The notes below the pieces were generated by a model that was not told where the DNA came from, did no database searches, and saw nothing but the letters and a program-made list of their open reading frames with translations. The position numbers and the translations under genes were made by a program. Shown here piece by piece: positions 6,098-54,020 of a DNA stretch of 58,096 nucleotides. Each line of letters starts with the position of its first letter. Position 1 is the stretch's first letter. Source of the stretch: a virus; IMG/VR virus record IMGVR_UViG_3300027609_000006, positions 1 through 58,096 of that record; one strand, 5' to 3'.

Positions 6098-6099
6098 GT

Positions 6100-9936: not shown

Positions 9937-9992
9937 AATCATCTACAATATCCCCGTTTGTATCCTCCGATGTGAAACTCGCCTCACGGCAA

Positions 9993-10377: not shown

Positions 10378-10388
10378 AGGTGCTGAGA

Positions 10389-10447: not shown

Positions 10448-10472
10448 TTGTTTCGAGTACGGAAAACCAAAC

Positions 10473-21236: not shown

Positions 21237-21240
21237 ACAA

Positions 21241-26324: not shown

Positions 26325-26333
26325 GGCCAAAAC
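26274..26333 (+). repeat. SAR arm, R-form
   Basis: CACCTCCTGGTCGAACGCG..GTGCAATGAGGCCAAAAC. ATG 26321 lies inside the arm terminus. Confidence 0.8.
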
Positions 26334-27079
26334 ATAATCCCGCCAAATTCGACCGTTGCGTAAAGGACGTGAAGCGTTCCAAATCCGCCCGTAGCGCCTA
26401 CGCTATCTGCACAGCAGCCGGAACCCGCAACCCCGGTACCGGAGCCATGGTCGCCTCAGCACTCAGCCACTCCGCCGCCGGCCGCAAAGCACAAGTTGCG
26501 ATTAAAAAGCTTTTCTCGAAGGCAAAGAACCCGCAGGACGCCTCTGAGCAGATGTTCGAAATCTTCCACGGCATGGCGCCGAATGAAATCCTGCACATCG
26601 TGGAGCGCGTTCACGTGCACGCGAACCTGTGGACGGCCGGCACACTCACATCAATGGTGATCCAAACAGAGTATGGCTATCAGTTCGATTTAAACGCGCC
26701 GGACCCGGACACCGCGAAGCCGAAGGATGTGGTGTACGTCACCTTCAACGAAGCCGGAAACCAGATCTACTTCCGCGGCGGCAATCAGGAAATCCCGAGA
26801 TCGTGGCTCGAAAAAGCCGGGCTCAAATCCGACGACTTCCGGGAGCACATGATTATCGGCGCGGTGGTCGAACTGACATACCGGACGAAAAAGAAATTCG
26901 AGAAGGGCGGAAAAGAACTAGTGGACTTCTATCACGGCTTGGGAAAAGAGCACTCGCGCGGAGTTTTGCCGATGCTGGTTTACAAGCCGCGTGATCCGAG
27001 CATGGCGCTCTACGGAGGGCGATATAAAGTGTTGCCCAAGAGGGCGGATTTGGGCGCGAGTCCGGGAATCGGCGGATGA
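26321..27079 (+). CDS. Hypothetical (possibly virion) protein
   Basis: NPAKFDRCVKDVKRS..SAYAICTAAG. Confidence 0.7.
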   Translation: MRPKHNPAKFDRCVKDVKRSKSARSAYAICTAAGTRNPGTGAMVASALSHSAAGRKAQVAIKKLFSKAKNPQDASEQMFEIFHGMAPNEILHIVERVHVHANLWTAGTLTSMVIQTEYGYQFDLNAPDPDTAKPKDVVYVTFNEAGNQIYFRGGNQEIPRSWLEKAGLKSDDFREHMIIGAVVELTYRTKKKFEKGGKELVDFYHGLGKEHSRGVLPMLVYKPRDPSMALYGGRYKVLPKRADLGASPGIGG

Positions 27080-30710: not shown

Positions 30711-31054
30711 TCGTAAACTACCTGAACGCAGGCGGGCCGGGCAACGTCGCTCCGACAGTGGCTCAAGCGCTCACGTTCAATACGCTGAACGTGTCGCTGA
30801 GTCCGTCATCGACTCTCGACACATCGCAGGCCATCACCACCAACTGGGGACTCCCGCCCTCGGATATTTCCGCCGGTTGGCCGTTCATCCACATTCAACC
30901 GATGGATTTCACGGCTGGATCTTCGGGATGGTACAACATCAGCCAGGCTCCGAGTTTTGTGATTGTCGGTCGCGTCGGAACCACGGCGGGAATCGATACC
31001 GCGAACGCTCAGGTGATTGTCTCAATCGCACGTCCGATTTCGTTAGTTCGATAA
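30707..31054 (+). CDS. Hypothetical beta-rich protein
   Basis: ORF track. Confidence 0.6.
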   Translation: MIVNYLNAGGPGNVAPTVAQALTFNTLNVSLSPSSTLDTSQAITTNWGLPPSDISAGWPFIHIQPMDFTAGSSGWYNISQAPSFVIVGRVGTTAGIDTANAQVIVSIARPISLVR

Positions 31055-31055
31055 T

Positions 31056-31201
31056 ATGTCGGCCTCAGTCAAATCCGGTCTGCGCATCAACGCTCTATCG
31101 TTCGGCCAGGAGAGGGTTTCGCCCTTCGCGGGTCCAAAACACTTCTCCTGGTCGGGCGCTCCGGAACCAACCGAAGCCACTCCGTCGAAGGAGGCCAAAA
31201 C
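31056..31201 (+). repeat. Complete SAR hairpin (F-form plus R-form)
   Basis: F: ATGTCGGCCTCAGTC..ATCGTTCGGCCAGGAGAGG. R: CTTCTCCTGGTCGGGCGCTC..GAAGGAGGCCAAAAC. Micro-ORF 31056..31220, 54 aa. Confidence 0.9.
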
Positions 31202-31357
31202 ATGTTCATCACCCGAGTAACGAAGGTCGTCAATCCGCATCATGCATCTGCTCACCGGAGCAGGTCCGTAGCGGAATCAGGGGGAAGTCCGTCTTTCTCG
31301 AACCCAGCGGCTCACATGCTGACGCTGGGATTTATCAATCCCAAAGGGAGGGTCTTA

Positions 31358-33284: not shown

Positions 33285-33740
33285 ATGAGCACATATCCCA
33301 TCAACCAATTCGCACCAGACTATTTCCAGGGCCTCGCACTGGACCCGAACGCGTCTGTCGATCCCAAACCCTTCAACTACGTCTACAACCCGCCGAACGG
33401 CCAACTTACCGCAGATCAGGAGATCGACGGCGACACGGTCTCGATTCAAACGGACGCGGATTTCTACGCCTTCGGCTGGTACATCTCACTGTTCACTGGC
33501 GCGTTTCAGATCCGCCTCGCGGATTCGACCGGCTACCAGTTGCAAAGCGGCTTCATTAATTCGGGCGCGCTTTCGCAATCTTCAAACCAACCCACGGTGT
33601 TTTCGCCGGCGCATCTGTTCCCGGCTGGATCGAAGATCCTGATCGACATCGAAGATTTGTCGGATGCAACCAATCCGTTGCAAATCGTGTTTCCCGGTGT
33701 CAAGTTGTATAAGATCATTGGAAGGGCGGGGAAGGGGTAG
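33285..33740 (+). CDS. Beta-rich virion-protein candidate
   Basis: ORF track. FYAFGWYISLFTGAFQIRLADSTGYQL resembles the N-terminal half of 37227..38378. Confidence 0.65.
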   Translation: MSTYPINQFAPDYFQGLALDPNASVDPKPFNYVYNPPNGQLTADQEIDGDTVSIQTDADFYAFGWYISLFTGAFQIRLADSTGYQLQSGFINSGALSQSSNQPTVFSPAHLFPAGSKILIDIEDLSDATNPLQIVFPGVKLYKIIGRAGKG

Positions 33741-35152: not shown

Positions 35153-35376
35153 GTGATTCTGAGGCGGTTCGAACGCTGGAGCGACGTCAAAAGCATTTGA
35201 TCTCTCTTCTTGAGCCAAAACGCGGGTACGATGTGAATTCGCTACATTTCATTCGAGCCGAAGTTGCAGCGTTGTCAGTCGCTCTTTCGGCAATCGAGGA
35301 CCGTCGAAAACTTCTCCTGGTCGGACGCTTTACGCCGCACGAAGCCGCGCTGCCGACGGAGGCCAAAACATCATGA
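35149..35376 (+). CDS. Small hypothetical protein
   Basis: ORF track. Ends ..LLLVGRFTPHEAALPTEAKTS (R arm). Confidence 0.5.
   Translation: MSDSEAVRTLERRQKHLISLLEPKRGYDVNSLHFIRAEVAALSVALSAIEDRRKLLLVGRFTPHEAALPTEAKTS
35311..35372 (+). repeat. SAR arm, R-form (type specimen)
   Basis: CTTCTCCTGGTCGGACGCTTTACGCCGCACGAAGCCGCGCTGCCGACGGAGGCCAAAACATC, then ATG 35373. Confidence 0.95.
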
Positions 35377-36317
35377 GCCGCGGACTCGCAGACATCGTAC
35401 CCCTGAACATCCCCCCAGGAGCCGTAACCACACAAGCAGCGGGATGGTTAAACGGACCGGATGGAAACTGGTACTGGACAGGCTCCACTCCTCCCCCTTT
35501 GAATATCCCCATCACTTCCGGGCCGGGCATACCCTCAAACGCAGGTTGGGTCATTGCACCCAACGGACAACTGGTATGGACCGGCCCCGGCACTCAGCCG
35601 ACGATTCTTCCCGCGTCCGTGACGCCGCCGGGCAGCGTGATCTCCGTGCCTTCTGGTGCGCAAGGGCCGATCCTGAACTGGACGCCCCAGCCGCTGCTAC
35701 CCGATTCGATCCTTCCGCCGCCGCTACAGCGTTCGAACCCGCTGGCCGCACCTGCACAGTGGATTCCCAACAAATACGACTTCCAGATCATCGGAAGGGC
35801 CAAGAAATGGCAATGGGTCGCCGCGCACGGAGGCCTGAAGTCGTGCTGCCGTATCCCGGAGCTCGGCGCGCCAATTTACGATCTGCCGCCGTGGGAAAAG
35901 ATGCCGTCGAACAGCTTCGAATTCCAGGAAATGAATGGTTTGCCGATCGCAGATTTTCAGAGCGGTGGAATTTTCACAGGCGACGATGTCCTTATCCTAT
36001 CAATCCAGGTGCCTTCAGGTTACGACGGCGTCATCAACCGGTTCGTGGCCGGAACGACGGGAGTAACGGGCTACGCGGATTTCACGGATTCGATCAACTG
36101 GCGCCTGAAATACGGCATCCGCTATGCAAAGAACCTGGGCGATGTCGATAATACATTCGGATCGTTCAACAACGCTATCCAGGTTCCCCAGACGTATATT
36201 TGCCGGGTGATTTCCGGGCAAACAATCGAAGTTTACGCGAACGTGCCGGTGGGTTCCCCAATCGCGGGAGGCTCAATCAACGCCGGCGTTTTCGGATGGT
36301 TTTATCCGCGGCGGTAA
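35373..36317 (+). CDS. Beta-rich virion-protein candidate (314 aa)
   Basis: ORF track. Pro-rich N-terminus, then a beta-rich domain. Confidence 0.7.
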   Translation: MSRGLADIVPLNIPPGAVTTQAAGWLNGPDGNWYWTGSTPPPLNIPITSGPGIPSNAGWVIAPNGQLVWTGPGTQPTILPASVTPPGSVISVPSGAQGPILNWTPQPLLPDSILPPPLQRSNPLAAPAQWIPNKYDFQIIGRAKKWQWVAAHGGLKSCCRIPELGAPIYDLPPWEKMPSNSFEFQEMNGLPIADFQSGGIFTGDDVLILSIQVPSGYDGVINRFVAGTTGVTGYADFTDSINWRLKYGIRYAKNLGDVDNTFGSFNNAIQVPQTYICRVISGQTIEVYANVPVGSPIAGGSINAGVFGWFYPRR

Positions 36318-38637: not shown

Positions 38638-38801
38638 GTTGGCGCTCCTCACGGATTATCGTTTTGGGCCGACTGCTCATCCGTTCGCGCTAAGGATTCT
38701 CCGCAGTAGAACCGTAAACGCCACGCCAGCTTGGAGCGGAACAACTCCTGGTCGGGCGCTCAAAAGCAGAGCGAAGCCACGCTGCTGACGGAGGCCAAAT
38801 C
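38637..38801 (+). repeat. Chimeric double arm: d-type F-form plus standard R-form, at the convergence point
   Basis: GGTTGGCGCTCCTCACGG..CCGTTCGCGCTAAGGATTC, then CAACTCCTGGTCGGGCGCTC..GACGGAGGCCAAATC. No gene follows. Confidence 0.75.
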
Positions 38802-38809
38802 ATAATCGT

Positions 38810-39079
38810 TCAACCACAGGACTGCCCCGAAGACTTCGGCATATTCGAAGTGCGGACCATTTCCATGAGGTCCAGATTGTAAGCCGTGAGCTTACCCAAC
38901 CGGACATCAATGCATATTCCCGTCGCATCAAATGGATATTCGAAACCGTTCTCCAAAACACCGATTATGACTAGTTCCTCAGCCAGCGGAGGAACGCCCT
39001 TGATCCGAACCAATTCCTTCCCGCCCCGCGTCCTATACACGCATCCGATTGAGGATTCCCACGCTTTTCGATCAAGCAT
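38810..39079 (-). CDS. Hypothetical protein
   Basis: ATG follows GGAGGCCGAAGAAA. Confidence 0.55.
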   Translation of the reverse strand: MLDRKAWESSIGCVYRTRGGKELVRIKGVPPLAEELVIIGVLENGFEYPFDATGICIDVRLGKLTAYNLDLMEMVRTSNMPKSSGQSCG

Positions 39080-40133
39080 TTTCTTCGGCCTCCTTGGGAT
39101 TGAGTTTTGCAACCCGAGACTTTTCCGCCCGACCAGGAGGAGTACTGGATTGCAACCGCTGTTTAATTGTCTCCAGATCCAACATCGAATGCGGCCTCAT
39201 CGCCGGCAACTTCGTAATCTGTCGGCTAACACCATCCGGAGCCTTGCTGGAATCGTACGTCGTAATGCGCGGGAACCTTCCAGACTCCAAAACTCCCAGT
39301 TCGGGCGCCCAAATCCATCCTTCACCGGTTCGGAGGGAAGCCAGCGATCGCAGCATTTCCCTGCCCTCGTGCGGTTGTGCCCATTCCCCAATCCAATCCT
39401 CGATCGCGCGGCGGTCCTGGGGGGCGATCAGCCGCAATACGATCAGCGTTTCGGACTGAGTAATCGAATCTTTGTGGACTTTCGCCGGGCGTTGGGAAAT
39501 GAGGACAATTCGTAGGCCAATTCCACGGCCGAGACTAACCAGGTTGTTGGCAGCATCGAGCATCCGCACGCCGGCGGCATCCGATGGCCGGGCTTGCGGC
39601 ATGAACAGGTGCGCTTCGTCGATCATTAGCGTGAGTGGGCCGCGGTTCGTCCGCAGCAGAGTTTCCGCGAAATCCGCGAAGAACGTCGTGCGCTCCTTGA
39701 TGGTCATGATGCGGGTGTCTAGCACGGCGGACGTGTCGGTGGTCCCGATGATTTCGCCCAGCGCGGTGCCGTGATGGGGCAGCAGAAATACATCATCCGG
39801 CGGCCGCGCTATCGGATGAGGTAGGCCATGTTCTCGCCCAAACAGATAGATCGGGAATCCCGGCTTCTTTCCAGTCGAATCCGCTCGCAAGCCCCACCAG
39901 ACGCCCGTGGGATCGATCACGCAGAGGCGCCGGTGTTTTGCCAAGAGCAGTTCCGCGAAGCCTTTCGCTGCGTAACTTTTTCCCGAGCCAGTTTTCCCCA
40001 GAATCGCGATATGCTGCTCCAGTAGTTTCATGAACAGTGCGCGCCGCTGGATCGGATTGGCCGGATCTCCACCTTCGGTGAGTGTGGAGACGAGCTGCTG
40101 AGCTGCTCGGTGTAATGAGGAGAGGTCTTTCAT
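39072..40133 (-). CDS. FtsK/HerA-superfamily ATPase (candidate genome-packaging ATPase)
   Basis: Walker A ILGKTGSGKS. Walker B LTLMIDEAHLF. RIVLISQRP. Confidence 0.75.
   Translation of the reverse strand: MKDLSSLHRAAQQLVSTLTEGGDPANPIQRRALFMKLLEQHIAILGKTGSGKSYAAKGFAELLLAKHRRLCVIDPTGVWWGLRADSTGKKPGFPIYLFGREHGLPHPIARPPDDVFLLPHHGTALGEIIGTTDTSAVLDTRIMTIKERTTFFADFAETLLRTNRGPLTLMIDEAHLFMPQARPSDAAGVRMLDAANNLVSLGRGIGLRIVLISQRPAKVHKDSITQSETLIVLRLIAPQDRRAIEDWIGEWAQPHEGREMLRSLASLRTGEGWIWAPELGVLESGRFPRITTYDSSKAPDGVSRQITKLPAMRPHSMLDLETIKQRLQSSTPPGRAEKSRVAKLNPKEAEENA
39084..39142 (-). repeat. SAR arm, R-form
   Basis: Minus strand CTCCTCCTGGTCGGGCGG..CCAAGGAGGCCGAAG. Confidence 0.8.
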
Positions 40134-40136
40134 CCT

Positions 40137-40457
40137 TTATTTGGCCTCGCCGGAGGGTCGGGCTTCGTCGGAAGCTGCACGCTCGACATGGGCGACGATC
40201 TCCCTTTTGGCTATTTCCCGGATGAATCCTGCTTCGTCGCGCCAATGCCCCAATTCCTCACCACATCTAGCACATCGAACATCCACTTGGAATTTGTACC
40301 CGCGAAAGCGATCTACCAGAAGAGCGCCACGATGAAAACAAAAAACGGGCCATCTGAACTCTGAGCGCGCGGCGACAATTTGCACCCCGCCCCTGACGTA
40401 CCCAGCTTTAATATATTCCAAAAACTTGTCAACGGAAGGTTTCTCTGATTGGCTCAT
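40137..40457 (-). CDS. Zinc-ribbon protein inserted between the two ATPase copies
   Basis: GGGAGGA lies 3 nt before the ATG. Contains CARCGEELGH. Ends ..PSGEAK in an R arm. Confidence 0.55.
   Translation of the reverse strand: MSQSEKPSVDKFLEYIKAGYVRGGVQIVAARSEFRWPVFCFHRGALLVDRFRGYKFQVDVRCARCGEELGHWRDEAGFIREIAKREIVAHVERAASDEARPSGEAK
40138..40194 (-). repeat. SAR arm, R-form
   Basis: Minus strand GCCCATGTCGAGCGTGC..CGGCGAGGCCAAATAAAGG, then ATG 40133. Confidence 0.85.
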
Positions 40458-40825
40458 AAATCCTCCCAAGCTGCGACGAGGGTGGCCCACGCGTGCGGAT
40501 CAAGCGGAAGGTCCGCGTGCTCCCCGCCAAAAACGTAGATCGGGAAGGCTGGCCGCTTCCCGGTTTTGTCGGATCGGAGGCCCCACCAGACGCCCGTGGG
40601 GTCCAGGATGCAGACGCGCTGCTTTTTTGCGAGCAATAATTCGGCGAATCCCTTCGCAGTGAAGGTTTTCCCGCAACCTGTTTTTCCCAAAATTGCGATG
40701 TGCTGCTCCAGCAGCTTCATGAACAGCGCGCGCTGCGCGATCGGATTGGCCGGATCTCCACCTTCGGTGAGCGTGGAGACGAGCTGTTGAGCTGCTCGGT
40801 GTAATGAGGAGAGGTCGCCTTTCAT
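40454..40825 (-). CDS. Truncated paralog of the FtsK/HerA ATPase (N-terminal ~105 aa, Walker A only; possibly a pseudogene)
   Basis: MKGDLSSLHRAAQQLVSTLTEGGDPANPI..ILGKTGCGKT..DPTGVWWGL aligns with residues 1-105 of 39072..40133. The first ~90 nt are nearly identical. Confidence 0.6.
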   Translation of the reverse strand: MKGDLSSLHRAAQQLVSTLTEGGDPANPIAQRALFMKLLEQHIAILGKTGCGKTFTAKGFAELLLAKKQRVCILDPTGVWWGLRSDKTGKRPAFPIYVFGGEHADLPLDPHAWATLVAAWEDL

Positions 40826-41241
40826 GGTTTAGCCTCCGTCGGCTTGGGAGTCTTCGCGCGAGGCTTTCGCGCCCGACCAGGAGAGGTTTCTGTCTCCGTC
40901 ATCACTCCTGCCAGGAATCCATTGATCGCCCCGATCATGAACAAACAAGACGCTACTGTATGGATAATCTGAAATGTTTCACCCCACGCCTTTTCAAATC
41001 CCTCCGTCGTCAACTCCTCGCGCTCTGAGTCCACCCAGTCTACGATTATCTTGAGTACATCGTCTGCTGAGCCAATTATGTTTCGCCGGTAGTCCTTGTT
41101 TTTTTGAAGAAACTTCGCGATCCTCTTTACCACGTCTTCATCTAATTCCGCGCCGCAATAACCAGCGTCCCTTAAGGCTTGCTTGAATTCCGGCCTCTCC
41201 TCCACGACCAGGGCGAGTGGATTTCTCTGCGGTTTTTTCAC
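40822..41241 (-). CDS. Hypothetical protein (C-terminal TM)
   Basis: GTG start 3 nt after the AGGAGAAGG of an F arm. Ends ..KPTEAKP. Confidence 0.6.
   Translation of the reverse strand: MKKPQRNPLALVVEERPEFKQALRDAGYCGAELDEDVVKRIAKFLQKNKDYRRNIIGSADDVLKIIVDWVDSEREELTTEGFEKAWGETFQIIHTVASCLFMIGAINGFLAGVMTETETSPGRARKPRAKTPKPTEAKP
40826..40887 (-). repeat. SAR arm, R-form
   Basis: Minus strand CTCTCCTGGTCGGGCGCG..GCCGACGGAGGCTAAACC, then ATG 40825. Confidence 0.9.
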
Positions 41242-41900
41242 AGTCCTTCTCCTGGTCGAACGATCCCGCTCCCAGTTGCAGCACCACCCTGCGATGAGGC
41301 CAAATTACTAAGCCTTTGAATTACCAGCCACACCCCAGCCCTGGACCTCCCCATCATCTTCGCAATCTCCGTGTCTGAAAGCCCCTGGTTGTGCAGATCC
41401 ATAATCTTCAACTCCTCAATCGGCGGGCTAGACTTGGGCCTCCCTAGCCGCACACCCTTCCGCCGCGCGTTGTCCAGGCCGGCCCTGACACGCTCCACGA
41501 TCATTTCCCGCTCGAACTCCGCGAAGGCTCCAACAGTTTGAAAGAAGAACCGGCCCATCGGTGTGGTGGTGTCGATGTCCTGGGTTGCGGAGATGAAATC
41601 GATGCCCAGTGCGCGAAACAACTCCAGGGCTTCCATCAGAGATTGGAGTGATCGGGCGAACCGGTCGAACTTCCAGACCAGCACGACGTCGAAGCGCTTC
41701 TGTTTCGAATCAGCCATTAATCGCTGGTATGCGGGTGCCTGCCCGGCCTTTCGTTTGGAAACCACTCCGGTCACCTGGTCGACGTACTGATTGAAGACTT
41801 CGAAGTTGCGGCGCTGGGAGTAGTCGATCAGGGATGTGATTTGAGAATCCGCTGATTGGTCTGAGGTCGAGACGCGAGCGTAGATCGCCACTTTTTTCAT
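41238..41900 (-). CDS. Small serine recombinase (resolvase/invertase family)
   Basis: VAIYARVSTSDQ, VWKFDRFARS, C-terminal HTH GLSDTEIAKMMGRSRAGV. The last ~20 aa are F-arm translation. Confidence 0.9.
   Translation of the reverse strand: MKKVAIYARVSTSDQSADSQITSLIDYSQRRNFEVFNQYVDQVTGVVSKRKAGQAPAYQRLMADSKQKRFDVVLVWKFDRFARSLQSLMEALELFRALGIDFISATQDIDTTTPMGRFFFQTVGAFAEFEREMIVERVRAGLDNARRKGVRLGRPKSSPPIEELKIMDLHNQGLSDTEIAKMMGRSRAGVWLVIQRLSNLASSQGGAATGSGIVRPGEGL
41245..41306 (-). repeat. SAR arm, F-form
   Basis: Minus strand AATTTGGCCTCATCGCAGG..GATCGTTCGACCAGGAGAAGG. Confidence 0.9.
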
Positions 41901-43167: not shown

Positions 43168-43329
43168 TCAGGCGCGCTTCTTTGCCTTGGCTCTCTTCCG
43201 CGCCCGCGCCCGTTTCGCCTCTTCCTTGACCACATCCTCTTTCGAGACAGTGAACATCTTGCGGACGGCGTAGTCCATACGTTCCTGCTCTGTATCACCC
43301 GGAACGTTCGGTGCTGGCGCTGGCTTCAT
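43168..43329 (-). CDS. 53-aa basic protein, paralog of 15161..15379 (below the ORF-track cutoff)
   Basis: Hand translation MKPAPAPNVPGDTEQERMDYAVRKMFTVSKEDVVKEEAKRARARKRAKAKKRA. ATGA overlap with the PIN gene. Confidence 0.45.
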   Translation of the reverse strand: MKPAPAPNVPGDTEQERMDYAVRKMFTVSKEDVVKEEAKRARARKRAKAKKRA

Positions 43330-43841
43330 TCGTCGAAATCCTCCGGGGCAGGCCCAATGCGTTTCGGAGCCATGCCTTCAAATGTTGGCTGGTCCGACAT
43401 GAAGGAAGGCTCCTCTACGGTGATGCGATTAGCGACGCCACCGAAGTCTCGGTCCCATGCTTGCAGTGCGTCTATTTTCCACAAAATCGCGGAGGCCGCA
43501 TGGACGGCGTCCGCTGGTTGTAGCTCGTGGTCACGAGCGAGATCCGCAGCAAAGAAGGCAGTCCGAGGATCTAGCTCTATTGTTGTTAGAAACGGCCACC
43601 GAAACATCCCGTTAATCATTGTTATTTCGCCAGCCGTGAGCTTACGCGCGTTGGGTATGGACTTCTTCTTCGGTCTGATGACTTCCGCAATCGTGTAGGT
43701 TGAGGTGTACAATCGGATCTTTCCATCGGCGGCGTGCTGTAAAATGTCTTCGCAAATCCTTCGGCGCAATTCCTCGCCTATGCCCAGGAAGCATAGGAAA
43801 ATGGATGTATCCCAGTAAATTTGGCGGATTAACCTAGCCAT
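43326..43841 (-). CDS. PIN-domain (VapC-like) nuclease
   Basis: YWDTSIF, TIAEV, PADAVHAASA, AWDRDF give the acidic-residue pattern of PIN. Confidence 0.7.
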   Translation of the reverse strand: MARLIRQIYWDTSIFLCFLGIGEELRRRICEDILQHAADGKIRLYTSTYTIAEVIRPKKKSIPNARKLTAGEITMINGMFRWPFLTTIELDPRTAFFAADLARDHELQPADAVHAASAILWKIDALQAWDRDFGGVANRITVEEPSFMSDQPTFEGMAPKRIGPAPEDFDE

Positions 43842-44595
43842 TGCGCAGTTCGTCCATATGCTCTTTTAGGGACACGCCGCTATACAGATCGCTAAGCAGT
43901 CCAGACATCTCCTGAATGCCCGGAAACCCAATAGGCTTCAGCGCGGTGAACTCATGGACGTTTACGAGAAAGGGTTCGCCCTGGGCATTCCTGTGGACTT
44001 CTCCGAAGACTTCTACTTCCTGCTTGAGGTGCCTCGCCACCTGGGCCAGCATGGATTTCTTGAAGCGACAAGTCACAGCCTGCTTCGTCACCGCTGGCCA
44101 TATGCGAAATTCGTGACCATCGTGCACCGTTATAGCGTCAAGACTGCCACGGATTGAACCAAGGCTCACAGTGCCGGTTGCGATCAAATACTCGACGTTG
44201 TTGAATAGCCGCTGATCTACAAGAGACTGATGTGCTTCGGAATAGATGACCAGCCCTTTCACTTTCCTGGACTGCTCGGCTATATTTCTGGCGTTCTCAA
44301 GAGCGGAATACGAGTAGTTTTCTGGATGCTCGGGGCGTTCCGACAACCTGTCGAGACCATCCAAAATGGAGAATTGGACCTTCTCGGCGTAGTCCTTGGT
44401 TTTTGAGCGCAACACCGGCGCGTATTCAACAATTGCGGGACTGTTCTTACTCAACGCAGCCAAGTCCCAACCCAGGCTACCTCTGGATTGTTTTGAGACC
44501 GCTCTCTCAACGTCGTTGATTAGATCATAAAAATTGTTCAGACTCTTCGTGAATACGCCCGCAGAAACCTTTCCAGTGAATCGGATGCCGATCAT
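43834..44595 (-). CDS. Hypothetical protein co-transcribed with the PIN gene
   Basis: GGGAGG lies 4 nt before ATG 44595. 8-nt overlap with the PIN start. Confidence 0.6.
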   Translation of the reverse strand: MIGIRFTGKVSAGVFTKSLNNFYDLINDVERAVSKQSRGSLGWDLAALSKNSPAIVEYAPVLRSKTKDYAEKVQFSILDGLDRLSERPEHPENYSYSALENARNIAEQSRKVKGLVIYSEAHQSLVDQRLFNNVEYLIATGTVSLGSIRGSLDAITVHDGHEFRIWPAVTKQAVTCRFKKSMLAQVARHLKQEVEVFGEVHRNAQGEPFLVNVHEFTALKPIGFPGIQEMSGLLSDLYSGVSLKEHMDELRNG

Positions 44596-44739
44596 GCAAC
44601 CTCCCGGGATTCGCATTCACAGCTTCCCATTTTTTCGCCTTCCGCGTCCCTGCCTCTGTTGCGGACGCCAACGTTGGTCATGATCGTTGTTCCGCTGTTT
44701 CGGTCTTGCCCGTCAAAACCGATTCGTCAGCCGTTTTCA

Positions 44740-44968
44740 AAACCATCCTCCGCCACATCTGCCCATTGCAACTTCAGGTGACCGCGCGCGTCAAGCTGAA
44801 AGCGTCCGACCAGGAGAAGTTCTGAATCTTCACCGGAGGTTCTTGGGGGACTGTTGGCACCCGTCCTCCGGCGCGTTTGGTTCGGAGGACCGCGTCGGGA
44901 CCCGATCCAAAACTTTCTCCTGGTCGAACGCTCTGAACTCGATGGCTCACTCTTCCGAATGAGGCTAA
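44740..44968 (-). repeat. Complete SAR hairpin on the minus strand, with a ~95-nt apical insert
   Basis: Minus strand F: GGAATTAGCCTCATTCGG..GAGCGTTCGACCAGGAGAAAG. R: CTTCTCCTGGTCGGACGCTTTC.., with a degenerate 3' end GGCGGAGGATGG. Confidence 0.8.
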
Positions 44969-44971
44969 TTC

Positions 44972-45931
44972 CTACTTCAAAACCGCATTCCCGGTCAACT
45001 TCGCGTTTCCTGTGATGCTTCCAAGTGGGTTTGCCACTCCCAGCGGGATTACCGTCCCCTGCTTTGCCTGCGTTGCCGTGTTCGTCGTGAGGATCGGCGT
45101 TGTCCACGTTGCCCAATTGTCGGTTGAAACGCTGTAGAACAATTGCCCGCCCGAGATGCTGTCAAAATCGAGATCGAGGAAAAGCCTCCAGCTGCTGGTA
45201 CCCGTCCGGACCAGCGCCGGGCCTTCCACGCACCCCTGACTGACCAGCCCGGCCCAATTACCGGTTTTCACGTTGGTGTACGTCCCCAAAAGCGTGGCGC
45301 TGCTCGCATATTGGATGTTGCAGGAGCCGTCCTGGAGTTTGTACCAGAGGTAGTAGGTGCCGCTCAGATAGACCGGGAAAACGTCGATCAGCGTGCTGAC
45401 TCCGGTAACCGTGACGGCCTGCACATTCGACCATGTGGAGAAATCCGCTGCCGTCGGGTGAATCTCAAAAACCTGGAAGTTGCCGCCGCCGTTGGTGCTG
45501 ATCGTCAGAAACACGTGCACCGATGCGAGGCCGGAGCCGTTCGGGTCAATAAACCATTCGGGCGCCCACGCGAAAACGGCGTTTGGAATGCCCATCGTGG
45601 TCAGGTCCAGAGTGGCGTGGGGTGCCCAGTTGATTCCGTCCGTTGAGTGTGACCAGGCGATGACGTAGGAGTTGGGCGATGAGCAACTGTTCGTGTGGAT
45701 CAGATAGTAGAGCCCAGAGTACGTCATGATCGACGGGTCGCGTGGGCCGTTTGTTCCTGGAGGTGGAGTCAGGCAGTCATAGGTAGGGCTTTGGGAGGTC
45801 CAGTTTGTCAAATCCGTTGATGTGAATACTTCAAAGGTGACGTTGGTTCCGGAGTCGGCAAAGGAGACTAATTCGTAGGTCGTTTGGGCGAATAGGGGGA
45901 GTGTGAGGAGCAGCAGGAGGAGGCTTTTCAT
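44972..45931 (-). CDS. Secreted GH43-like five-bladed-propeller glycoside hydrolase
   Basis: Signal peptide MKSLLLLLLTLPLFAQT. GPRDPSIM, WAPEWF, CVEGPAL. Confidence 0.6.
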   Translation of the reverse strand: MKSLLLLLLTLPLFAQTTYELVSFADSGTNVTFEVFTSTDLTNWTSQSPTYDCLTPPPGTNGPRDPSIMTYSGLYYLIHTNSCSSPNSYVIAWSHSTDGINWAPHATLDLTTMGIPNAVFAWAPEWFIDPNGSGLASVHVFLTISTNGGGNFQVFEIHPTAADFSTWSNVQAVTVTGVSTLIDVFPVYLSGTYYLWYKLQDGSCNIQYASSATLLGTYTNVKTGNWAGLVSQGCVEGPALVRTGTSSWRLFLDLDFDSISGGQLFYSVSTDNWATWTTPILTTNTATQAKQGTVIPLGVANPLGSITGNAKLTGNAVLK

Positions 45932-46230
45932 GGTTTGGCCTCCATCGGTTGATCGGCTTCGTGCGGCGTGCCGCGTCCGACCAGGAGGGACTTCAGTAGG
46001 TTCTCGAAGGAAACAAAAGGATGATCACACCAGTAGTCGGCGTCGTGACCAGGCCACAGTTCGGCGCGAAGGCAGAACTTCCCGTATTCGCGTTCATACC
46101 AGAAGCACGGAGGGCCGCCGTTCCTCACCACCTGCCCCCAGTCGGCGGCCTTTGCGGCTACCAGAAGTTGAACGTCTCCTGGTCGAACGCTTTCAGGTGC
46201 GGGTGTCTCGCTGCTCGATGAGGCCGACAT
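45928..46230 (-). CDS. Cassette ORF (100 aa) bounded exactly by an F arm and an R arm
   Basis: GGGAGGA lies 6 nt before ATG 46230. MSASSSS..ESVRPGD is F-arm translation and ..LLVGRGTPHEADQPMEAKP is R-arm translation. Confidence 0.55.
   Translation of the reverse strand: MSASSSSETPAPESVRPGDVQLLVAAKAADWGQVVRNGGPPCFWYEREYGKFCLRAELWPGHDADYWCDHPFVSFENLLKSLLVGRGTPHEADQPMEAKP
45932..45990 (-). repeat. SAR arm, R-form
   Basis: Minus strand CCCTCCTGGTCGGACGCGG..CCGATGGAGGCCAAACC, then ATG 45931. Confidence 0.9.
46173..46230 (-). repeat. SAR arm, F-form (translated)
   Basis: Minus strand ATGTCGGCCTCATCGAGC..AAAGCGTTCGACCAGGAGACG. Confidence 0.9.
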
Positions 46231-46242
46231 AAAAATTCCTCC

Positions 46243-48312
46243 CTACGGATTGCTAATAGCCAAAGAATCCAGACGAAATTGAGACTGTGAAGCCCCACCG
46301 CCGAAGGTCACATGAAACCCGACGCCACTTTTCGACTCCGTTAAAAACGTCCCCGCCGCTTCCGAAAACACTGGAACGTAATCGACCCCATTGACCGAAT
46401 AGGAATAGGAGCGCGTCGTTGAGTTGTTTTTGATCTGAAGCCAGATGCTTTTCTGCGCCTGAAAGCTGGTCGGGCTAGCATAGGTGTTCGTGTTGAAACT
46501 GGTTGCATTGTTGAATTGGGCCACATTGAAGCCATTTCCGCCGTTGAAAACGTCGAACGTGATGAACTTCGTCCCGTCCCCGATTATTGCTGAACAGGCC
46601 GAACTAACTACCCCGTTCAAGCCGCACCAGATGTGCACCCGATATGTATACGGGATCGAAAGCGCCGTCCCGCTCATATACGCATCCGCGCAATCTCCCG
46701 TAGTCGTGCAACTGTTCGCCGTGTTCGCGATGATGTAATCCACATCGACCGCCGTCACTGTGGAGCCGTCCTGGTGCGTCCAGGTGTAGCCCGAGTTCGT
46801 GAAGCTGGTAAGCAAAACGCCCTGGCTGTCTCCGTTATAGGGGAGCCACGCCGAACCGCTATAGCCGAAGAGATGCGGTGAATTGTTCGCGAAAAAGAGG
46901 TCGCCAGCAGATGGAGTTCCGGGAAACGTGGGATACGTACCGAAGGTCACTTTGTTGCCGCCGCCAGGTCCACCGCCGCCGTACTCATACCCGATCTGGA
47001 CGTTTGGAGCCGCGACAACCGTGCCCGTGGTAGTGATCAAAATATCCAGCAAATCGCCCTGCGTAACGCTGAACGAATGCGTGAGGTCCGTGCATGTCTT
47101 CGCGCTTGCACCGGAGATTGTACAAGTCACGGCCTGTGAACTGCCGCCGTCCCGGAATGTGAAGCTGATCGAATTGCCGGTACCGATAGCCGTGCTGAGG
47201 TTTACGCCCAAGTCCGAAACGGTAGCGGTAACTGGAGCGGTCCATTGCACGTTAGCCTCAGTGGTGGACGGGAGCCCGCCGCCAACGGGAGGAATGAAGG
47301 TATTCCCCGCAGTCGGGAGCGTCACGGCTGGAGCCGAGTATCCATTCGAGGCCCCACCCGTCGCGGTCCCGGTTGAAGAAACCGTCAATGTATACGTTCC
47401 GCTGCCGGTTGGCACGAGGCTGATGTTCGACCCGGCCACAAAATTCAGAGTTGTCAGGCCGGTCAAGGGAGTTCCGTTCACCTGCACGCCGAATCCGCTG
47501 CCTCCGCTCGCGATCCACTGGAGTAGATGGCACGTCGTGGGATACCCGGCTGGCAGCGTCGGGCACGTGGTGGCGCCGCTGTCCGAGAGCACCTGCCCCG
47601 CTGTCCCATTGGTGGAGGGAAGGACGTACACAATGGCCGTTCCCGCGACATCCGCGACTGCCACGGTCACCCCGCCGGAGGTGAAGCCGTTCATCTGGAC
47701 GCTGCCGCTGAAAGCGCCATTCGCTGTGAATCCGGACGATGTCGTTACTCCCGGGAGCACGGGATTCGATGGGATGCTGATGTTGCAGGTGGCGGTCGAT
47801 CCAGTGGTGCACCCCGCGCCACTCGCGGTGATTTCGTTCGCTGTTCCGGTAATCGTCGGCCCGCCGCCTCCACCCCCCCCGCCGCCTTTGCTGATTACCG
47901 TCTGGGAGCCCTGGAGCACGCCATAAACCGTGCCCGATCCGGTTCCAGTGAAGACGACACGGAGCCATGGGGTTGCCACCGTCCCATTCGTAAAGGTGGC
48001 GACACCAGTTGTGGTGAGAGGGTTAGAGCCGGTCGCCGTCGTTCCCGTGTATGTGCCGAAGGTTCCCGGTGTGGAGGTCGTTGCCGCGAGCGCGCTTTGA
48101 AGCGTAACGGTGAAGGAACCGAAGCCCGCGTTGTAAACCGTCAACGTGAACTTGTCGCAACCAATTTGCTGGTTTGGCAGGTTCGCGCTGGTCAGATGTG
48201 TCGCGTCGAATGTGAAATTCAACGTACACGGTGGAATGATGGTGCTCTGGGTTGGTTGGGCGAAGCAGAGTGGGGCTATGAGCAGAGTAAGCAGTAGTTT
48301 CAGGGTCTGCAT
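46243..48312 (-). CDS. Secreted 689-aa Thr/Gly/Ser-rich beta protein (adhesin, spike or fibre-like)
   Basis: Signal peptide MQTLKLLLTLLIAPLCFAQP, poly-Gly tracts, no named domain. Confidence 0.8.
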   Translation of the reverse strand: MQTLKLLLTLLIAPLCFAQPTQSTIIPPCTLNFTFDATHLTSANLPNQQIGCDKFTLTVYNAGFGSFTVTLQSALAATTSTPGTFGTYTGTTATGSNPLTTTGVATFTNGTVATPWLRVVFTGTGSGTVYGVLQGSQTVISKGGGGGGGGGPTITGTANEITASGAGCTTGSTATCNISIPSNPVLPGVTTSSGFTANGAFSGSVQMNGFTSGGVTVAVADVAGTAIVYVLPSTNGTAGQVLSDSGATTCPTLPAGYPTTCHLLQWIASGGSGFGVQVNGTPLTGLTTLNFVAGSNISLVPTGSGTYTLTVSSTGTATGGASNGYSAPAVTLPTAGNTFIPPVGGGLPSTTEANVQWTAPVTATVSDLGVNLSTAIGTGNSISFTFRDGGSSQAVTCTISGASAKTCTDLTHSFSVTQGDLLDILITTTGTVVAAPNVQIGYEYGGGGPGGGNKVTFGTYPTFPGTPSAGDLFFANNSPHLFGYSGSAWLPYNGDSQGVLLTSFTNSGYTWTHQDGSTVTAVDVDYIIANTANSCTTTGDCADAYMSGTALSIPYTYRVHIWCGLNGVVSSACSAIIGDGTKFITFDVFNGGNGFNVAQFNNATSFNTNTYASPTSFQAQKSIWLQIKNNSTTRSYSYSVNGVDYVPVFSEAAGTFLTESKSGVGFHVTFGGGASQSQFRLDSLAISNP

Positions 48313-48328
48313 GGGGTGTATTTTACAT

Positions 48329-48389
48329 GATTTGGCCTCAAAGAGATAGGGGCTTCGCGCGGGGTTTGAAGCGTTCGACCAGGTGGGGT
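48329..48389 (-). repeat. SAR arm, R-form
   Basis: Minus strand CCCCACCTGGTCGAACGCTTC..CTTTGAGGCCAAATC, then ATGTAA. The real ATG 48312 lies 15 nt later. Confidence 0.8.
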
Positions 48390-48396
48390 TTTGCGG

Positions 48397-48903
48397 CTAA
48401 CAATAACACCGGAAGAAATATCTTCGTTCTTCGAGTTCCACATGTTTGCCTGTCACTTTCTCGAAATGGTACCAGAACTCTCCGGGCAAATCGAATCTGA
48501 TTTCGTTGTCTCCATCGAAAGCGCCGTCCAATAAATCGCTATAGGGCGTTTCTTGTTCCTTGGCAAAGTTCCGTAGATACGCCTCGGAAAGGGATATTTC
48601 ATCGCTCGTTCGGAATGCAGGATGAGCCCATTCGTGTCGAAGCGATGTAACTGTATTTGGATAAAGAAGCAGCCAGAAACAAGCTCCCTTCGGAATGGAT
48701 CTACGCAGGAAGGGATCAGCAATCCCGATGGGCTCCACTTGATCGCTGGACTTGTGGACGACATCGCACTTTCCAGTTTCAAATCCGATATGGTCTCCTG
48801 GCTTAATGTCCTCTCCTGCGATCACCGGGGCAATTGCCACATGAACCGCATCGCGATGCTCGGTACCTTTGATCATTTCGCCAATGTTTATCGAATTGCT
48901 CAT
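48397..48903 (-). CDS. Hypothetical protein
   Basis: ORF 48397..48954 trimmed to MSNSINIG. Confidence 0.6.
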   Translation of the reverse strand: MSNSINIGEMIKGTEHRDAVHVAIAPVIAGEDIKPGDHIGFETGKCDVVHKSSDQVEPIGIADPFLRRSIPKGACFWLLLYPNTVTSLRHEWAHPAFRTSDEISLSEAYLRNFAKEQETPYSDLLDGAFDGDNEIRFDLPGEFWYHFEKVTGKHVELEERRYFFRCYC

Positions 48904-48918: not shown

Positions 48919-48978
48919 CCTTAGCGCGAACGGAAGTGCAGTCGCCCAAAACACTCAGACCGAGAAGAGCGCCAACAA
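48919..48978 (-). repeat. SAR arm, F-form, d-type
   Basis: Minus strand TTGTTGGCGCTCTTCTCGG..CCGTTCGCGCTAAGGATTC. Its 5' part encodes the peptidase C-terminus. Confidence 0.75.
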
Positions 48979-50076
48979 ATCATCTCCATTCGGTGCTCCC
49001 AATCCTGAACACGCATCCGGTCCTCTTCGTGCCGAGTACGTCCCATTCTCTCCCCGCGTGATGTCCACAAAGCAATTGGGATTCAGAAACAGCTTCGGAG
49101 TCACAAATCCCAGTTTTTTTCCGAACGACGCGAACAACCCCGCATACAGTGGCGCAACCGCGCTCGTGCCCCCGATCACTTGTGACTGACCATAGACCAC
49201 GATTTGATACCCAGTATTGGGATCGGCGTTGGCCGTGACATCGGGAACCATCCGACCCAATCCCGCCGGCGGCTTCGGCGCGCCAATCTGAAAACTCTGC
49301 ACCGGGAAGAACGTTGAGAACCCGCCACCTGTCCCTTCGCCATTAGTCGTTCCCGGATTGTTGTTCCAAACCGTTTCGGAGTTCGTGACCTTCGTGGTTC
49401 CTCCGCAACCAACCACATGGGGACAGGAAGCCGGCGCATCGACGTTTGCCGCATTTGGTCCGCCATCCGAGGAGTCGTTATCCCCCGCCGCCGCGAACAC
49501 CGCCATGCCCGCAGTAACGGCCGCCAGAGCCGCGCTCTCCATCTGCTGGAGCCCTGCGTTGCCCCAATCCGCTTCGTCAGCTCCCCAGGAGATCGAGCAC
49601 ACGTCGCAGCCGTCGTTCATTGCCGCAGTGAGAGCTGGTGCGATGTCTTGCGCCCAGTAGACGCGGATGTTCGCCTGTTTGCCGGTGGCGTGCTGGTAGG
49701 CTGCTGCTGCTACCTGGATGTCCAGCGCCACTTCGAAGTCTGCATCGTTCTGCGGGTTTTGCAGGGAGTTCTGTGTCCCGTCGACGGAGACGTCGGTGAT
49801 GTTGGGGACGGGTTGGTTGATCGATGCGAAGAACGCGGCCATGTCGGATTGGACCCAGCCGCCGCCCAGTTCGATGATCGCGATGGTTGCGCCGCCTGGT
49901 GCTGTGCTCACTGGGAAGTGGTAGGAACCTAAGAGGGTGGGGAGTTTCCAGGGGCCAGTGTGCGGGTTGGTGATGAGACGCTGGACTGCCGCCCATGCGG
50001 AATTAACATGCGGGGCTCTCTTGAAGTATGGATGGCATTTGATCTGCCGTTGGGTGGGAGAGGATTGGGAGTTCAT
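48955..50076 (-). CDS. Sedolisin/kumamolisin-like S53 serine-carboxyl peptidase
   Basis: DFEVALDIQ, CSISWG, IGGTSAVAPLYAG. Confidence 0.75.
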   Translation of the reverse strand: MNSQSSPTQRQIKCHPYFKRAPHVNSAWAAVQRLITNPHTGPWKLPTLLGSYHFPVSTAPGGATIAIIELGGGWVQSDMAAFFASINQPVPNITDVSVDGTQNSLQNPQNDADFEVALDIQVAAAAYQHATGKQANIRVYWAQDIAPALTAAMNDGCDVCSISWGADEADWGNAGLQQMESAALAAVTAGMAVFAAAGDNDSSDGGPNAANVDAPASCPHVVGCGGTTKVTNSETVWNNNPGTTNGEGTGGGFSTFFPVQSFQIGAPKPPAGLGRMVPDVTANADPNTGYQIVVYGQSQVIGGTSAVAPLYAGLFASFGKKLGFVTPKLFLNPNCFVDITRGENGTYSARRGPDACSGLGAPNGDDLLALFSV

Positions 50077-50079
50077 TTT

Positions 50080-50140
50080 TGTTTTGGCCTCATCGGGATT
50101 CGGGATTCACGTCGGATTGGGAGCGTTCGACATTCAGGGT
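50080..50140 (-). repeat. SAR arm, R-form
   Basis: Minus strand CCCTGAATGTCGAACGCTC..CCGATGAGGCCAAAACAAAA, then ATG 50076. Confidence 0.85.
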
Positions 50141-51747: not shown

Positions 51748-51966
51748 TCATTTTGAATCGGCCTCCGTCGGCTTTGTGGCTTCGTGCGGCGTGTCTCGCC
51801 CGACCATGAGGGAATCTTTTTGGGCTTTGAGGAAAGCCACTCCTTCCTCAGCAGTGTAGGGGCACCGGGTAGAGCCGAAGTGGATTCCTCCACAATTAGG
51901 ACAGTCCCCCACCTGGTGGAACGCATTCGACGCCGCGCGAAGAGTCGATCCCGATGAGGCCAACAT
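51748..51966 (-). CDS. Cassette ORF, zinc-ribbon protein
   Basis: MLASSGS..FHQVGD is F-arm translation. Contains CPNCGG..TRC. C-terminus ..MVGRDTPHEATKPTEADSK is R-arm translation. Confidence 0.5.
   Translation of the reverse strand: MLASSGSTLRAASNAFHQVGDCPNCGGIHFGSTRCPYTAEEGVAFLKAQKDSLMVGRDTPHEATKPTEADSK
51755..51815 (-). repeat. SAR arm, R-form
   Basis: Minus strand GATTCCCTCATGGTCGGGCGAG..GCCGACGGAGGCCGATTC. Its tail AAAATGAAA is the TIR target. Confidence 0.85.
51906..51966 (-). repeat. SAR arm, F-form (translated)
   Basis: Minus strand ATGTTGGCCTCATCGGGATCG..AATGCGTTCCACCAGGTGGGGG. Confidence 0.85.
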
Positions 51967-51971
51967 AAAAC

Positions 51972-52214
51972 CTAAGCCGCCATCACCAACGCCGAAATCT
52001 GCGCTGCCCAAGCGGAAGATGTCGGAGGAGCAAGATATCGATTCAGAACGATACCTAGCCCCTCCCACAATCCGCGCTCCCCTTCGGACGGCGTATACGC
52101 CGCACGCTTCAGCATCACCCGCAGCTCGGCCGCGAGCACCGTGTTGTTATCGCTGGCCGGGGCTGTGGCGAGGATGGCAAGAATTTGAGTCACGAGGTTA
52201 GAAAATTTGCTCAT
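51972..52214 (-). CDS. Hypothetical protein
   Basis: AAAGGAAAC lies before ATG 52214. Confidence 0.5.
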   Translation of the reverse strand: MSKFSNLVTQILAILATAPASDNNTVLAAELRVMLKRAAYTPSEGERGLWEGLGIVLNRYLAPPTSSAWAAQISALVMAA

Positions 52215-53795: not shown

Positions 53796-53811
53796 CGGTA
53801 TCGCTCCAAAA

Positions 53812-53871
53812 CCCCACCTGGTCGAACGCCCTAAGTTGCGCGTAAAAACTCGATCCCGATGAGGCCAAATT
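53812..53871 (-). repeat. SAR arm, F-form
   Basis: Minus strand AATTTGGCCTCATCGGGATCG..GGGCGTTCGACCAGGTGGGG. Confidence 0.9.
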
Positions 53872-53887
53872 ATGCTCTTGCCTAAAT

Positions 53888-53904
53888 CTGTATACCTGTA
53901 TACC
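53888..53904. promoter_or_regulatory. Tandem CTGTATAC x2 (operator-like) in a divergent control region
   Basis: CTGTATACCTGTATACC, containing two GTATAC palindromes. Confidence 0.4.
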
Positions 53905-53932
53905 ATGGGAGTCATGAAAAAGTACACACTTA

Positions 53933-53993
53933 TTTTTTGGCCTCATTCGGCATGTGTTTTCACGCTGCCTTGCTCTCGTTCGACCAGGAGCGG
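53933..53993 (+). repeat. SAR arm, F-form
   Basis: TTTTTTGGCCTCATTCGGC..CTCGTTCGACCAGGAGCGG. Confidence 0.9.
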
Positions 53994-54020
53994 TTTGTGA
54001 TTCCAGGAGGAGTGTATCGT

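Follow-up and report, generated by a model that had tools for sequence, protein, structure and literature searches.

The 58,096-nt IMG/VR virus record IMGVR_UViG_3300027609_000006, analysed here over its whole length (referred to as the window), contains at positions 44740-44968 a long imperfect hairpin, which was found to be one copy of a two-form repeat, present in approximately 45 copies, that occupies the intergenic gaps of a tailed phage. The two forms, F and R, occupy exact positions relative to stop and start codons and include a Shine-Dalgarno (SD) sequence. Our leading, though tentative, reading (with a probability of roughly 0.42) is that they constitute an intercistronic cis-acting cassette operating on the mRNA, by SD masking, translational coupling or processing. 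An RNA-level role is placed first because this positioning is exact, the SD forms part of the unit, and F and R are specialised.

Alignment of copies with wider flanks defined a repeat unit of ~80 nt, which consists of the block aaaaCC.CTCCTGGTCGrrCG, about 30 variable nucleotides (usually including CGAAGC) and a terminal block GA(T/CG)GAGGCCAAAnnAT. A profile search of the window gave 53 matches (42 of them scoring at least 15 bits and 30 scoring at least 30 bits), which together make up 5.4% of its sequence; many partial matches are limited to GTCGAACG...GAGGCCAAA. Units were found at about a third to half of the phage gene junctions, and 21 pairs of units have hairpin geometry, while many units are solitary. 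Six other IMG/VR viral contigs are likewise rich in the repeat (168 additional matches), and 132 non-redundant full-length units from these contigs and the window were aligned with each other.

The strongest covariation in this alignment links the core dinucleotide (AA/GG) with the base preceding GAGG (T/G), a relation that is not Watson-Crick. The two forms are: (i) F, GAACG...TGAGGCCAAA (TGAGG), with ~90 copies, and (ii) R, GGrCG...CGGAGGCCAAAnnATG (CGGAGG), with ~38 copies. Compensation of AA/GG by TT/CC within one unit was considered and rejected, since the partner in terms of mutual information is the T/G just before GAGG. The forms differ clearly in their gene context (odds ratio 11.6, p=7.7e-7). 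R is mostly a sense leader that gives the downstream gene its SD and start codon (26 leaders vs 6 trailers), and F is mostly an inverted trailer adjoining the upstream stop codon (43 trailers vs 16 leaders). Of 42 clear leaders, 23 have the ATG at +11 from GAGG, and most have it at +11 to +14; in trailers the upstream stop codon lies ~12 nt from GAGG. At 18 tight junctions the units overlap the ends of upstream open reading frames (ORFs), which is the classic arrangement for translational coupling.

Paired units, or composites, have the layout stop - reverse complement of F (rcF) - variable apex - R - SD - ATG, and form quasi-palindromes of 150-380 nt that fill the intergenic space. Among the 17 composites that could be oriented by flanking ORFs, F is the trailer in every case, paired with an R leader in 13 and an F leader in 4; the lack of R-trailer/F-leader pairs carries no weight, as only ~0.8 would be expected from the frequencies of the forms. 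The apex between the arms measures 30-215 nt, and the arms are 14-28 nt long and lie ~35 nt upstream of the SD. Columns 20-33 of the inner helix (CTCCTGGTCGrrCG) are complementary in all composites, and this helix reaches 17-19 bp in the compact ones (in silico). The consensus composite has two helices with 91.9% canonical cells, a value that falls to 34-53% when the 3' partners are slid. Within the R arm, a 5-bp helix, GUCGG/(C/U)CGAC, lies directly 5' of the SD (85-100% canonical per pair) and is good in the R form only. A structure of the single unit was rejected as an explanation of the repeat, the RNAalifold helix obtained for it (5 bp, composed of invariant bases) being weak (-4.0 kcal/mol).

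The hairpin at 44740-44968 is a partly decayed composite, in which the R arm has lost its SD block (Table 1). A repeat search placed its inverted-repeat arms at 44791-44818 and 44915-44942 (28 nt each, 82% complementary, separated by 96 nt), with 18-nt cores AGCGTCCGACCAGGAGAA (44801-44818) and TTCTCCTGGTCGAACGCT (44915-44932). With up to 3 mismatches, the 18-mer occurs 15 times, vs 0.10 expected. A preliminary description of this region, made from the sequence alone, had reported a long helix with a C-A mismatch on the plus strand that becomes G.U on the minus strand, on which the genes lie. Pairing the two 18-mers by hand confirmed this: on the plus strand there are 17 Watson-Crick pairs and one C.A (44806 with 44927), the latter being U.G when read on the minus strand, and the flanking genes (44972..45931 and 43834..44595) are both on the minus strand. 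The three plus-strand hairpins invoked in the same description were recovered at 17813-17982, 21230-21396 and 31045-31213. The apical insert, said to have 95 nt and a stem of its own, does have the stem (CCGGAGG at 44833-44839 pairs with CCTCCGG at 44865-44871 in the predicted fold) but is 96 nt long. The decayed 3' end was likewise recognised correctly: the R-type unit matches the family profile at model positions 3-54 only, and a remnant of the SD block, GGCGGAGGATGG, is displaced ~20 nt too far downstream. The neighbouring "PIN island" was overstated and amounts to a single PIN-domain gene nearby (43326..43841).

In the predicted fold of this copy the inner helix reaches ~38 bp. The RNA of the sense (minus) strand folds at -94.9 kcal/mol (z=-5.8, equalled by 0 of 200 shuffles), that of the plus strand at -80.3 kcal/mol (z=-2.3), and the minus strand folded as DNA gives -41.6 (z=-3.1). 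The difference of 14.6 kcal/mol in favour of the sense strand is not typical of the repeat family. The downstream gene 43834..44595 relies on its own SD, ~150 nt beyond the decayed R arm. In between, two minus-strand mini-ORFs of 22 and 29 codons (44592-44744) form a chain of ATGA stop/start overlaps that ends at the ATG at 44595; it could be a translational relay or a coincidence.

The G.U position had been put forward as support for an RNA-level structure, on the grounds that the wobble always falls on the coding-strand RNA and that a DNA palindrome would not predict such asymmetry. In a narrow sense the first statement holds: wherever an F arm faces an R arm in an oriented composite, the F/R dinucleotide forms a sense U.G that would be C.A on the other strand (in 13 and 12 of the 17 oriented pairs for its two columns), antisense wobbles there number 0, and the tandem sense-strand U.G is fixed in all 11 compact composites. 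The effect is confined to these two columns, the remaining positions having no coding-strand preference. Over whole arms, transitions favour the antisense strand more often (e.g. 6 sense and 10 antisense in the copy at 17813), and for the 17.8 kb plus-strand hairpin the antisense strand is 12 kcal/mol more stable. The wobble is thus a single inherited F/R character, and not a set of independent repeated events, because the hairpins are copies of one composite with a fixed orientation to the genes. The second statement goes too far: integron attC sites, IS200/IS605 ends and the REP/RAYT system (REP, repetitive extragenic palindrome) are examples of single-stranded DNA hairpins with strand specificity, and of the mismatches in DNA G.T is the mildest. 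An RNA role remains the leading reading, but the wobble itself is weak evidence for it.

Units recur at orthologous junctions of relatives in which the flanking genes have 65-80% identity; for example, orthologous copies of the composite at 31045..31213 are present in the relatives L009 and L023. Blocks of orthologous copies are 96% identical and their variable segments 54%, compared with 90% and 41% for paralogues within the window (orthologue vs paralogue spacers, p=1.7e-4). The contrast between 96% in blocks and 54% in spacers indicates that the primary sequence is under purifying selection. The units are thus vertically inherited and constrained in sequence, and they represent neither decaying selfish copies nor recent insertions. 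Most of them are at conserved junctions, and two examples of indel or replacement were found among fragments of relatives. In L018 (5740-6140) a full composite stands where the window (23060-23290) has a TGATG stop/start overlap and a different upstream gene. The slot at 27.1-28.0 kb (window 27080-28050; L023 748-1508) differs among four genomes and is bounded by units in L023. Units border slots of variable gene content in relatives, which resembles modular exchange of the PeSL (promoter-early stem-loop) type.

On the mRNA-cassette reading, the outer helix (UUGGCCUC/GAGGCCAA) formed on the polycistronic mRNA would mask the SD and juxtapose the stop and start codons, and the 17-38 bp of the inner helix, in which the tandem U.G is fixed, would lock this fold. 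When translation ended 8-12 nt upstream of the outer helix, the terminating ribosome would melt that helix and thereby expose the SD, so that translation of the two genes would be coupled. Alternatively or additionally, a double-strand-specific RNase may cut the inner helix, as at the RNase III sites of phage T7. A sequence-specific factor (a protein or rRNA) probably also reads the blocks, because they are invariant and do not covary. The SD GAGG is paired in all 17 minimum free energy (MFE) folds of the sense strand. Promoter or terminator function of the units was rejected, as neither signal is enriched or coincident with them: sigma-70-like promoters were found at 6 and 4 sites vs 8.5 expected, none in units (the promoter type of the host may differ), and no intrinsic terminator was found on a composite, composites being followed by GGAGGCCAAAnnATG and not by a U tract. 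In an Rfam covariance-model scan only a tRNA reached the gathering score, and at E<=1 there were just chance matches of 15-17 bits. The units being devoid of promoter, terminator and Rfam matches fits a cassette acting on the mRNA.

Several results weigh against this reading. When the two fixed U.G pairs are included, 91.9% of consensus-helix pairs are canonical on the sense strand vs 83.8% on the antisense strand; without them the values are 91.3% and 90.2%, with 10 and 7 G.U pairs, respectively. In 8 of 17 composites the sense strand has the lower whole-hairpin MFE (mean difference -0.9 kcal/mol, p=0.96). Asymmetry between sense and antisense folds is equal in F leaders and F trailers (p=0.49 and 0.18) and does not separate all leaders from all trailers (p=0.70 and 0.78), and for the within-arm helix the transcribed strand is the better one in 16 units and the worse one in 19, the two strands being equal in 14 (p=0.27). 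There is no covariation in the helices (RNAalifold term +1.31), and the number of double changes observed in them was reached by 113 of 500 shuffles; moreover, the two arms do not complement each other over their central ~33 nt. Masking of the SD in genes served by units exceeds that in other phage genes as a trend only (0.71 vs 0.62, p=0.086). Solitary units and the occurrence of the same invariant sequence in both orientations form the pattern of a double-stranded DNA site. Finally, Pfam and PHROG scans of 72 phage proteins (those of at least 95 aa) detected no RNase III or RNA-binding protein. The RNA evidence of the preliminary description comes down to one fixed dinucleotide, which gains no support from the independent strand tests.

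The most serious competitor, which we regard as unlikely but deserving of attention, assumes that the blocks (CTCCTGGTCGrrCG and GAGGCCAAA) are regulatory or architectural DNA sites bound in double-stranded form by a phage or host protein, similar to the stoperators of cluster A mycobacteriophages or the ESAS repeats discussed below; the potential to form hairpins would in that case follow from sites being paired in inverted orientation. Dispersed homology at gene boundaries would, in addition, promote modular gene exchange in the manner of the T4 PeSLs. Such sites would account for blocks that are invariant and free of covariation, for solitary copies and conservation in both orientations, for the absence of a folding preference on the transcribed strand, for the higher identity of orthologous blocks than spacers, and for the different gene content beside units (the L018 composite and the 27.1-28.0 kb slot in L023). 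The same doubt about mRNA hairpins was voiced for ESAS by Pope et al. (PMC3203893). Against this stand the exact registration with stop and start codons and the SD embedded in the unit, as well as the strict trailer = F/leader = R polarity and the fixed U.G, the latter two of which would be superfluous for a double-stranded site. No candidate binding protein was identified among the 72 scanned proteins, the sole recombinase being a small serine recombinase, and the units persist at orthologous junctions, not merely at variable ones.

A bolder proposal, to which we give a low probability, is that F and R units serve in cis as the sites of a control system that the phage encodes and that operates genome-wide, a sequence-specific factor recognising the invariant blocks, together with the fixed tandem U.G helix, at ~45 junctions. 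This factor could be an RNA-binding protein or a nuclease, or else a strand-specific DNA-binding or recombination protein.

Still less probable is a selfish palindromic mobile element, similar to REPINs or to miniature inverted-repeat transposable elements (MITEs), in which the rcF-apex-R doublet would be spread between genes by a transposase whose substrate is a hairpin of single-stranded DNA. Its own SD would make the insertion tolerable, and solitary units would be decayed halves. The density of the repeat (42-53 copies per 58 kb, 5.4% of the genome), the coexistence of doublets and singletons, gain and loss between relatives, and a strand asymmetry typical of elements mobilised as single-stranded DNA are in line with such an origin. 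Set against these are the orthologous positions of the copies, with orthologues closer to each other than paralogues (0.54 vs 0.41, p=1.7e-4), and blocks held at 96% while spacers decay, which points to selection and not to neutral decay. No RAYT, IS200-type or other transposase was found among the 72 scanned proteins and no target-site duplication was seen in the compared relatives. In 185,579 species' cellular genomes the repeat gave only 8 matches, and several units were present in one contig only, the 3.8-kb phage-like L029 (DATLVQ010000036.1). The repeat is therefore a property of the phage lineage and not of its host, and a host REP family was rejected as its source, the scan of cellular genomes being negative. 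L029 is binned in a metagenome-assembled genome of Bryobacteraceae (Acidobacteriota), which offers a weak hint of the host.

An integron-like arrangement, with the composite as a folded single-stranded site of the attC type and the genes bracketed by inverted units as cassettes, is very improbable: the imperfect palindrome with a variable terminal structure of 30-215 nt, the strand-specific mismatch, the tight placement between small unrelated ORFs and a recombinase gene with an F unit inside its 3' end would suit it, but the outer boxes are TTTGGCCTC...GAGGCCAAA instead of RYYYAAC...GTTRRRY and in reversed order, the recombinase is a serine resolvase/invertase and not a tyrosine integron integrase, half of each site lies 5' of a gene with its SD, unlike in attC, and gene order is largely syntenic among relatives. 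Inversion of segments by the serine invertase was deemed implausible, gene orientation being conserved among relatives. The remaining probability is assigned to explanations outside the four readings involving RNA, DNA sites, a mobile element and attC-like sites.

The closest counterparts of the repeat are the start-associated sequences and extended SAS (SAS/ESAS) of cluster K mycobacteriophages and the PeSLs of T4. SAS/ESAS form a lineage-specific multi-copy repeat of the ~59-kb cluster K siphophage genomes (Pope et al. 2011, PMC3203893). SAS has the 13-bp consensus GGGATAGGAGCCC with at most 2 mismatches (PMC3203893, PMC12699233), and ESAS, located just upstream of SAS, consists of paired imperfect 17-bp inverted repeats with a spacer of 4-13 bp, in which the authors noted departures that do not support an mRNA hairpin (PMC3203893). 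Their function was still unexplained as of 2025 (PMC12699233). Both systems share an asymmetric repeat with a ribosome-binding site (RBS) at a fixed distance of a few nucleotides upstream of start codons, a subset of copies with an upstream imperfect inverted repeat and variable spacer, and conservation of sites at orthologous genes. The differences are: (i) unrelated sequence (GGGATAGGAGCCC vs GAGGCCAAA and CTCCTGGTCGrrCG), the units lacking the 13-bp consensus; (ii) a unit of ~80 nt vs 13 + 2x17; (iii) a left arm that is a complete inverted unit set against the upstream stop codon; (iv) two specialised forms, F and R; (v) spacers of up to 215 nt vs 4-13 bp; and (vi) 42-53 copies genome-wide vs 11-19 in the right arm only. 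The repeat adds to the SAS/ESAS phenomenon a second case, unrelated to the first and more elaborate.

PeSLs are cassettes of T4-like phages (Arbiol 2010, PMC2839356; Comeau 2014, PMC4122927). Like the units described here, they are intergenic, have an upstream stem-loop, end in the SD and start codon of the downstream gene, and are repeated between small ORFs. PeSLs occur beside indels or gene replacements between related phages, for which the present lineage offers the two examples above, most of its units being at conserved junctions. They differ in having a sigma-70-like (or Mot-type) promoter between stem-loop and SD (none coincides with the phage units), in their short, terminator-like stems (here the hairpin spans the whole intergenic region including the SD), and in being direct repeats that flank ORFs, whereas here inverted units bracket genes.

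Resemblance to the T7 RNase III sites lies in the long imperfect intercistronic hairpin, in the downstream SD situated in or beside the helix, and in the extent of the predicted double-stranded RNA, about two helical turns (17-19 bp, and ~38 bp in the copy at 44740-44968; in silico). The sites of the T7 early region are few, do not form a repeated sequence family and have been shown experimentally to be cleaved. In the present phage, by contrast, primary sequence rather than structure is conserved, and the hairpins are known from sequence alone. With REPINs and attC sites the composites have in common imperfect palindromic doublets, singleton halves, a variable apex and a strand-specific mismatch pattern. 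Unlike REPINs, they are accompanied by no RAYT (Y1 transposase) in the Pfam/PHROG scans and do not occur in cellular chromosomes, where REPs reach hundreds of copies outside genes; unlike both, they have different core sequences, no IntI, translation signals and purifying selection at orthologous sites. The AAA/TTT is outermost in (A)TTTGGCCTC ... GAGGCCAAA(A), the reverse of R'' RYYYAAC ... R' GTTRRRY in attC.

The first 99 nt of the window (1-99) are identical to the last 99 nt (57998-58096), and the window thus represents a whole tailed-phage genome, circular or terminally redundant, with a length of 57,997 bp. The same phage was assembled, circularly permuted and at 58,052-58,124 bp, in several ENA soil metagenome assemblies. 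PHROG and Pfam matches included a terminase large subunit, a tape measure protein, a tail transglycosylase, an endolysin, a D12 methyltransferase and the PIN protein. The single recombinase identified is a small serine resolvase/invertase (PF00239; gene 41238..41900, minus strand). One tRNA gene, tRNA-Thr(CGT) at 57120-57194, is overlapped on the same strand by a called 157-aa ORF (57043-57516), and this call is probably spurious. Gene 10607-11422 has a 21-nt (7-codon) length polymorphism, its product having 271 aa both here and in L005, and 264 aa in L004.

Some copies depart from the common arrangement (Table 1). The F unit at 41238..41313 is located inside a gene and not at the usual position after a stop codon. 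In the pair at 53797..54001 the GAGGCCAAA 3' ends face each other, a geometry opposite to that of every composite, and each unit points away from the adjoining gene. Within the unit at 19717..19801, the reverse complement of block 1, CCAGGAGG (19772-19793), serves as the SD for a called GTG at 19791, which means that ribosome-binding sites can come from inverted units as well. The sequence CGCTCT followed by an A-rich stretch is often seen after the core, in unit columns 32-40 (e.g. 31159-31166 and 17928-17935); we take it to be reminiscent of boxA of lambdoid nut sites (CGCTCTTA), although it is found in both orientations and is not specific. A hammerhead-like core, (C)GAUGAGG, was rejected, as U4 is absent, there is no GAAA or stem II partner, and Rfam was negative. 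Public gene calls cross composites at 21233-21388, 45928-46230, 51748-51966 and 5318-5536; such coding ORFs (calls of 51-100 aa) were rejected, because 1-2 nt indels separate the conserved blocks in aligned composites.

Table 1 Components of the 44740-44968 hairpin and other repeat units in the window (positions of the plus strand; empty cells, no entry).
Feature	Position	Strand	Evidence
Stop codon TAG of upstream gene 44972..45931, abutted by the F unit	44972..44974	-	gene calls, sequence
F unit, trailer, antisense to transcription, GAACG core, TGAGGCTAA end	44906..44984	+	nhmmer 43.3 bits, model 10-91
3' arm of inverted repeat (+ coordinates), contains TTCTCCTGGTCGAACGCT	44915..44942	.	repeat search
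Variable apical insert, 96 nt, own stem	44819..44914	.	sequence, repeat search, fold
5' arm (+ coordinates), contains AGCGTCCGACCAGGAGAA; C44806 is the C.A/G.U position	44791..44818	.	repeat search
Truncated R unit, GGACG core, model 3-54	44783..44834	-	nhmmer 34.1 bits
Displaced R SD-block remnant GGCGGAGGATGG, no longer serving the downstream gene	44740..44752	-	
Own SD GGGAGG (44605-44600) and ATG (44595-44593) of gene 43834..44595	44593..44605	-	gene calls
Neighbouring composite, ~170-nt spacer; F trailer 46167-46243 (+) after stop of 46243..48312	45916..46243	-	
R leader of the neighbouring composite, gives GGAGGCCAAACCATG for gene 44972..45931	45916..45996	-	
Composite; F trailer 51901-51974 (+), partial leader 51748-51815 (-)	51748..51974	-	
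Compact composite; F trailer 17813-17898 (-), R leader 17898-17982 (+)	17813..17982	+	
Compact composite; F trailer 21230-21317 (-), R leader 21316-21396 (+), ATG 21388	21230..21396	+	
Compact composite; F trailer 31045-31131 (-), R leader 31128-31213 (+), ATG 31202	31045..31213	+	
F unit, leader of 4969..5226; partner F 5452-5539 (+) in the same divergent gap	5228..5313	-	
Solitary F trailer after 5855..6097	6099..6182	-	
R unit in convergent gap, no called gene after it	9866..9951	+	
F unit, leader of 10018..10377	10380..10457	-	
Solitary F trailer after 18952..19725	19717..19801	-	
F unit, leader of 26321..27079	26260..26344	+	
Solitary F trailer after 33285..33740; orthologous copies in L009, L023 and L010	33738..33819	-	
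R leader of 35373..36317; orthologous copies in L009 and L023	35301..35378	+	
R unit abutting stop of 38810..39079 (-), convergence point of two gene blocks	38732..38813	+	
R leader of 38810..39079, embedded in 3' end of 39072..40133	39071..39157	-	
R leader of 40454..40825, embedded in 3' end of 40822..41241	40815..40893	-	
F unit within last ~25 codons of serine recombinase 41238..41900 (-), antisense	41238..41313	+	
F unit, leader of 46243..48312 (TTGAGGCCAAATCATG)	48319..48400	-	
Partial unit, model 27-90, leader of 48955..50076	50069..50131	-	
Two F units, 53797-53882 (+) and 53920-54001 (-), divergent gap 53796-54020	53797..54001	.	

For the interpretation of repeat families in general, it follows that shared wobble positions count as one inherited character and not as independent support for an RNA structure, and that a tabulation of wobbles must take in whole helices and independent positions. 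In the phage itself, one conserved, two-form, RBS-bearing cassette builds ~5% of the genome, and its clear stop/start geometry makes the hypothesis of coupling or processing directly testable. The unit also pinpoints true start codons and exposes ORFs miscalled through composites in this uncultivated phage lineage. If a genome-wide control system were indeed involved, it would set expression gene by gene, or would permit the excision or exchange of genes bracketed by inverted units, and the phage would represent a gene-by-gene "cassette" architecture in a tailed phage, unlike integrons, PeSLs and SAS/ESAS.

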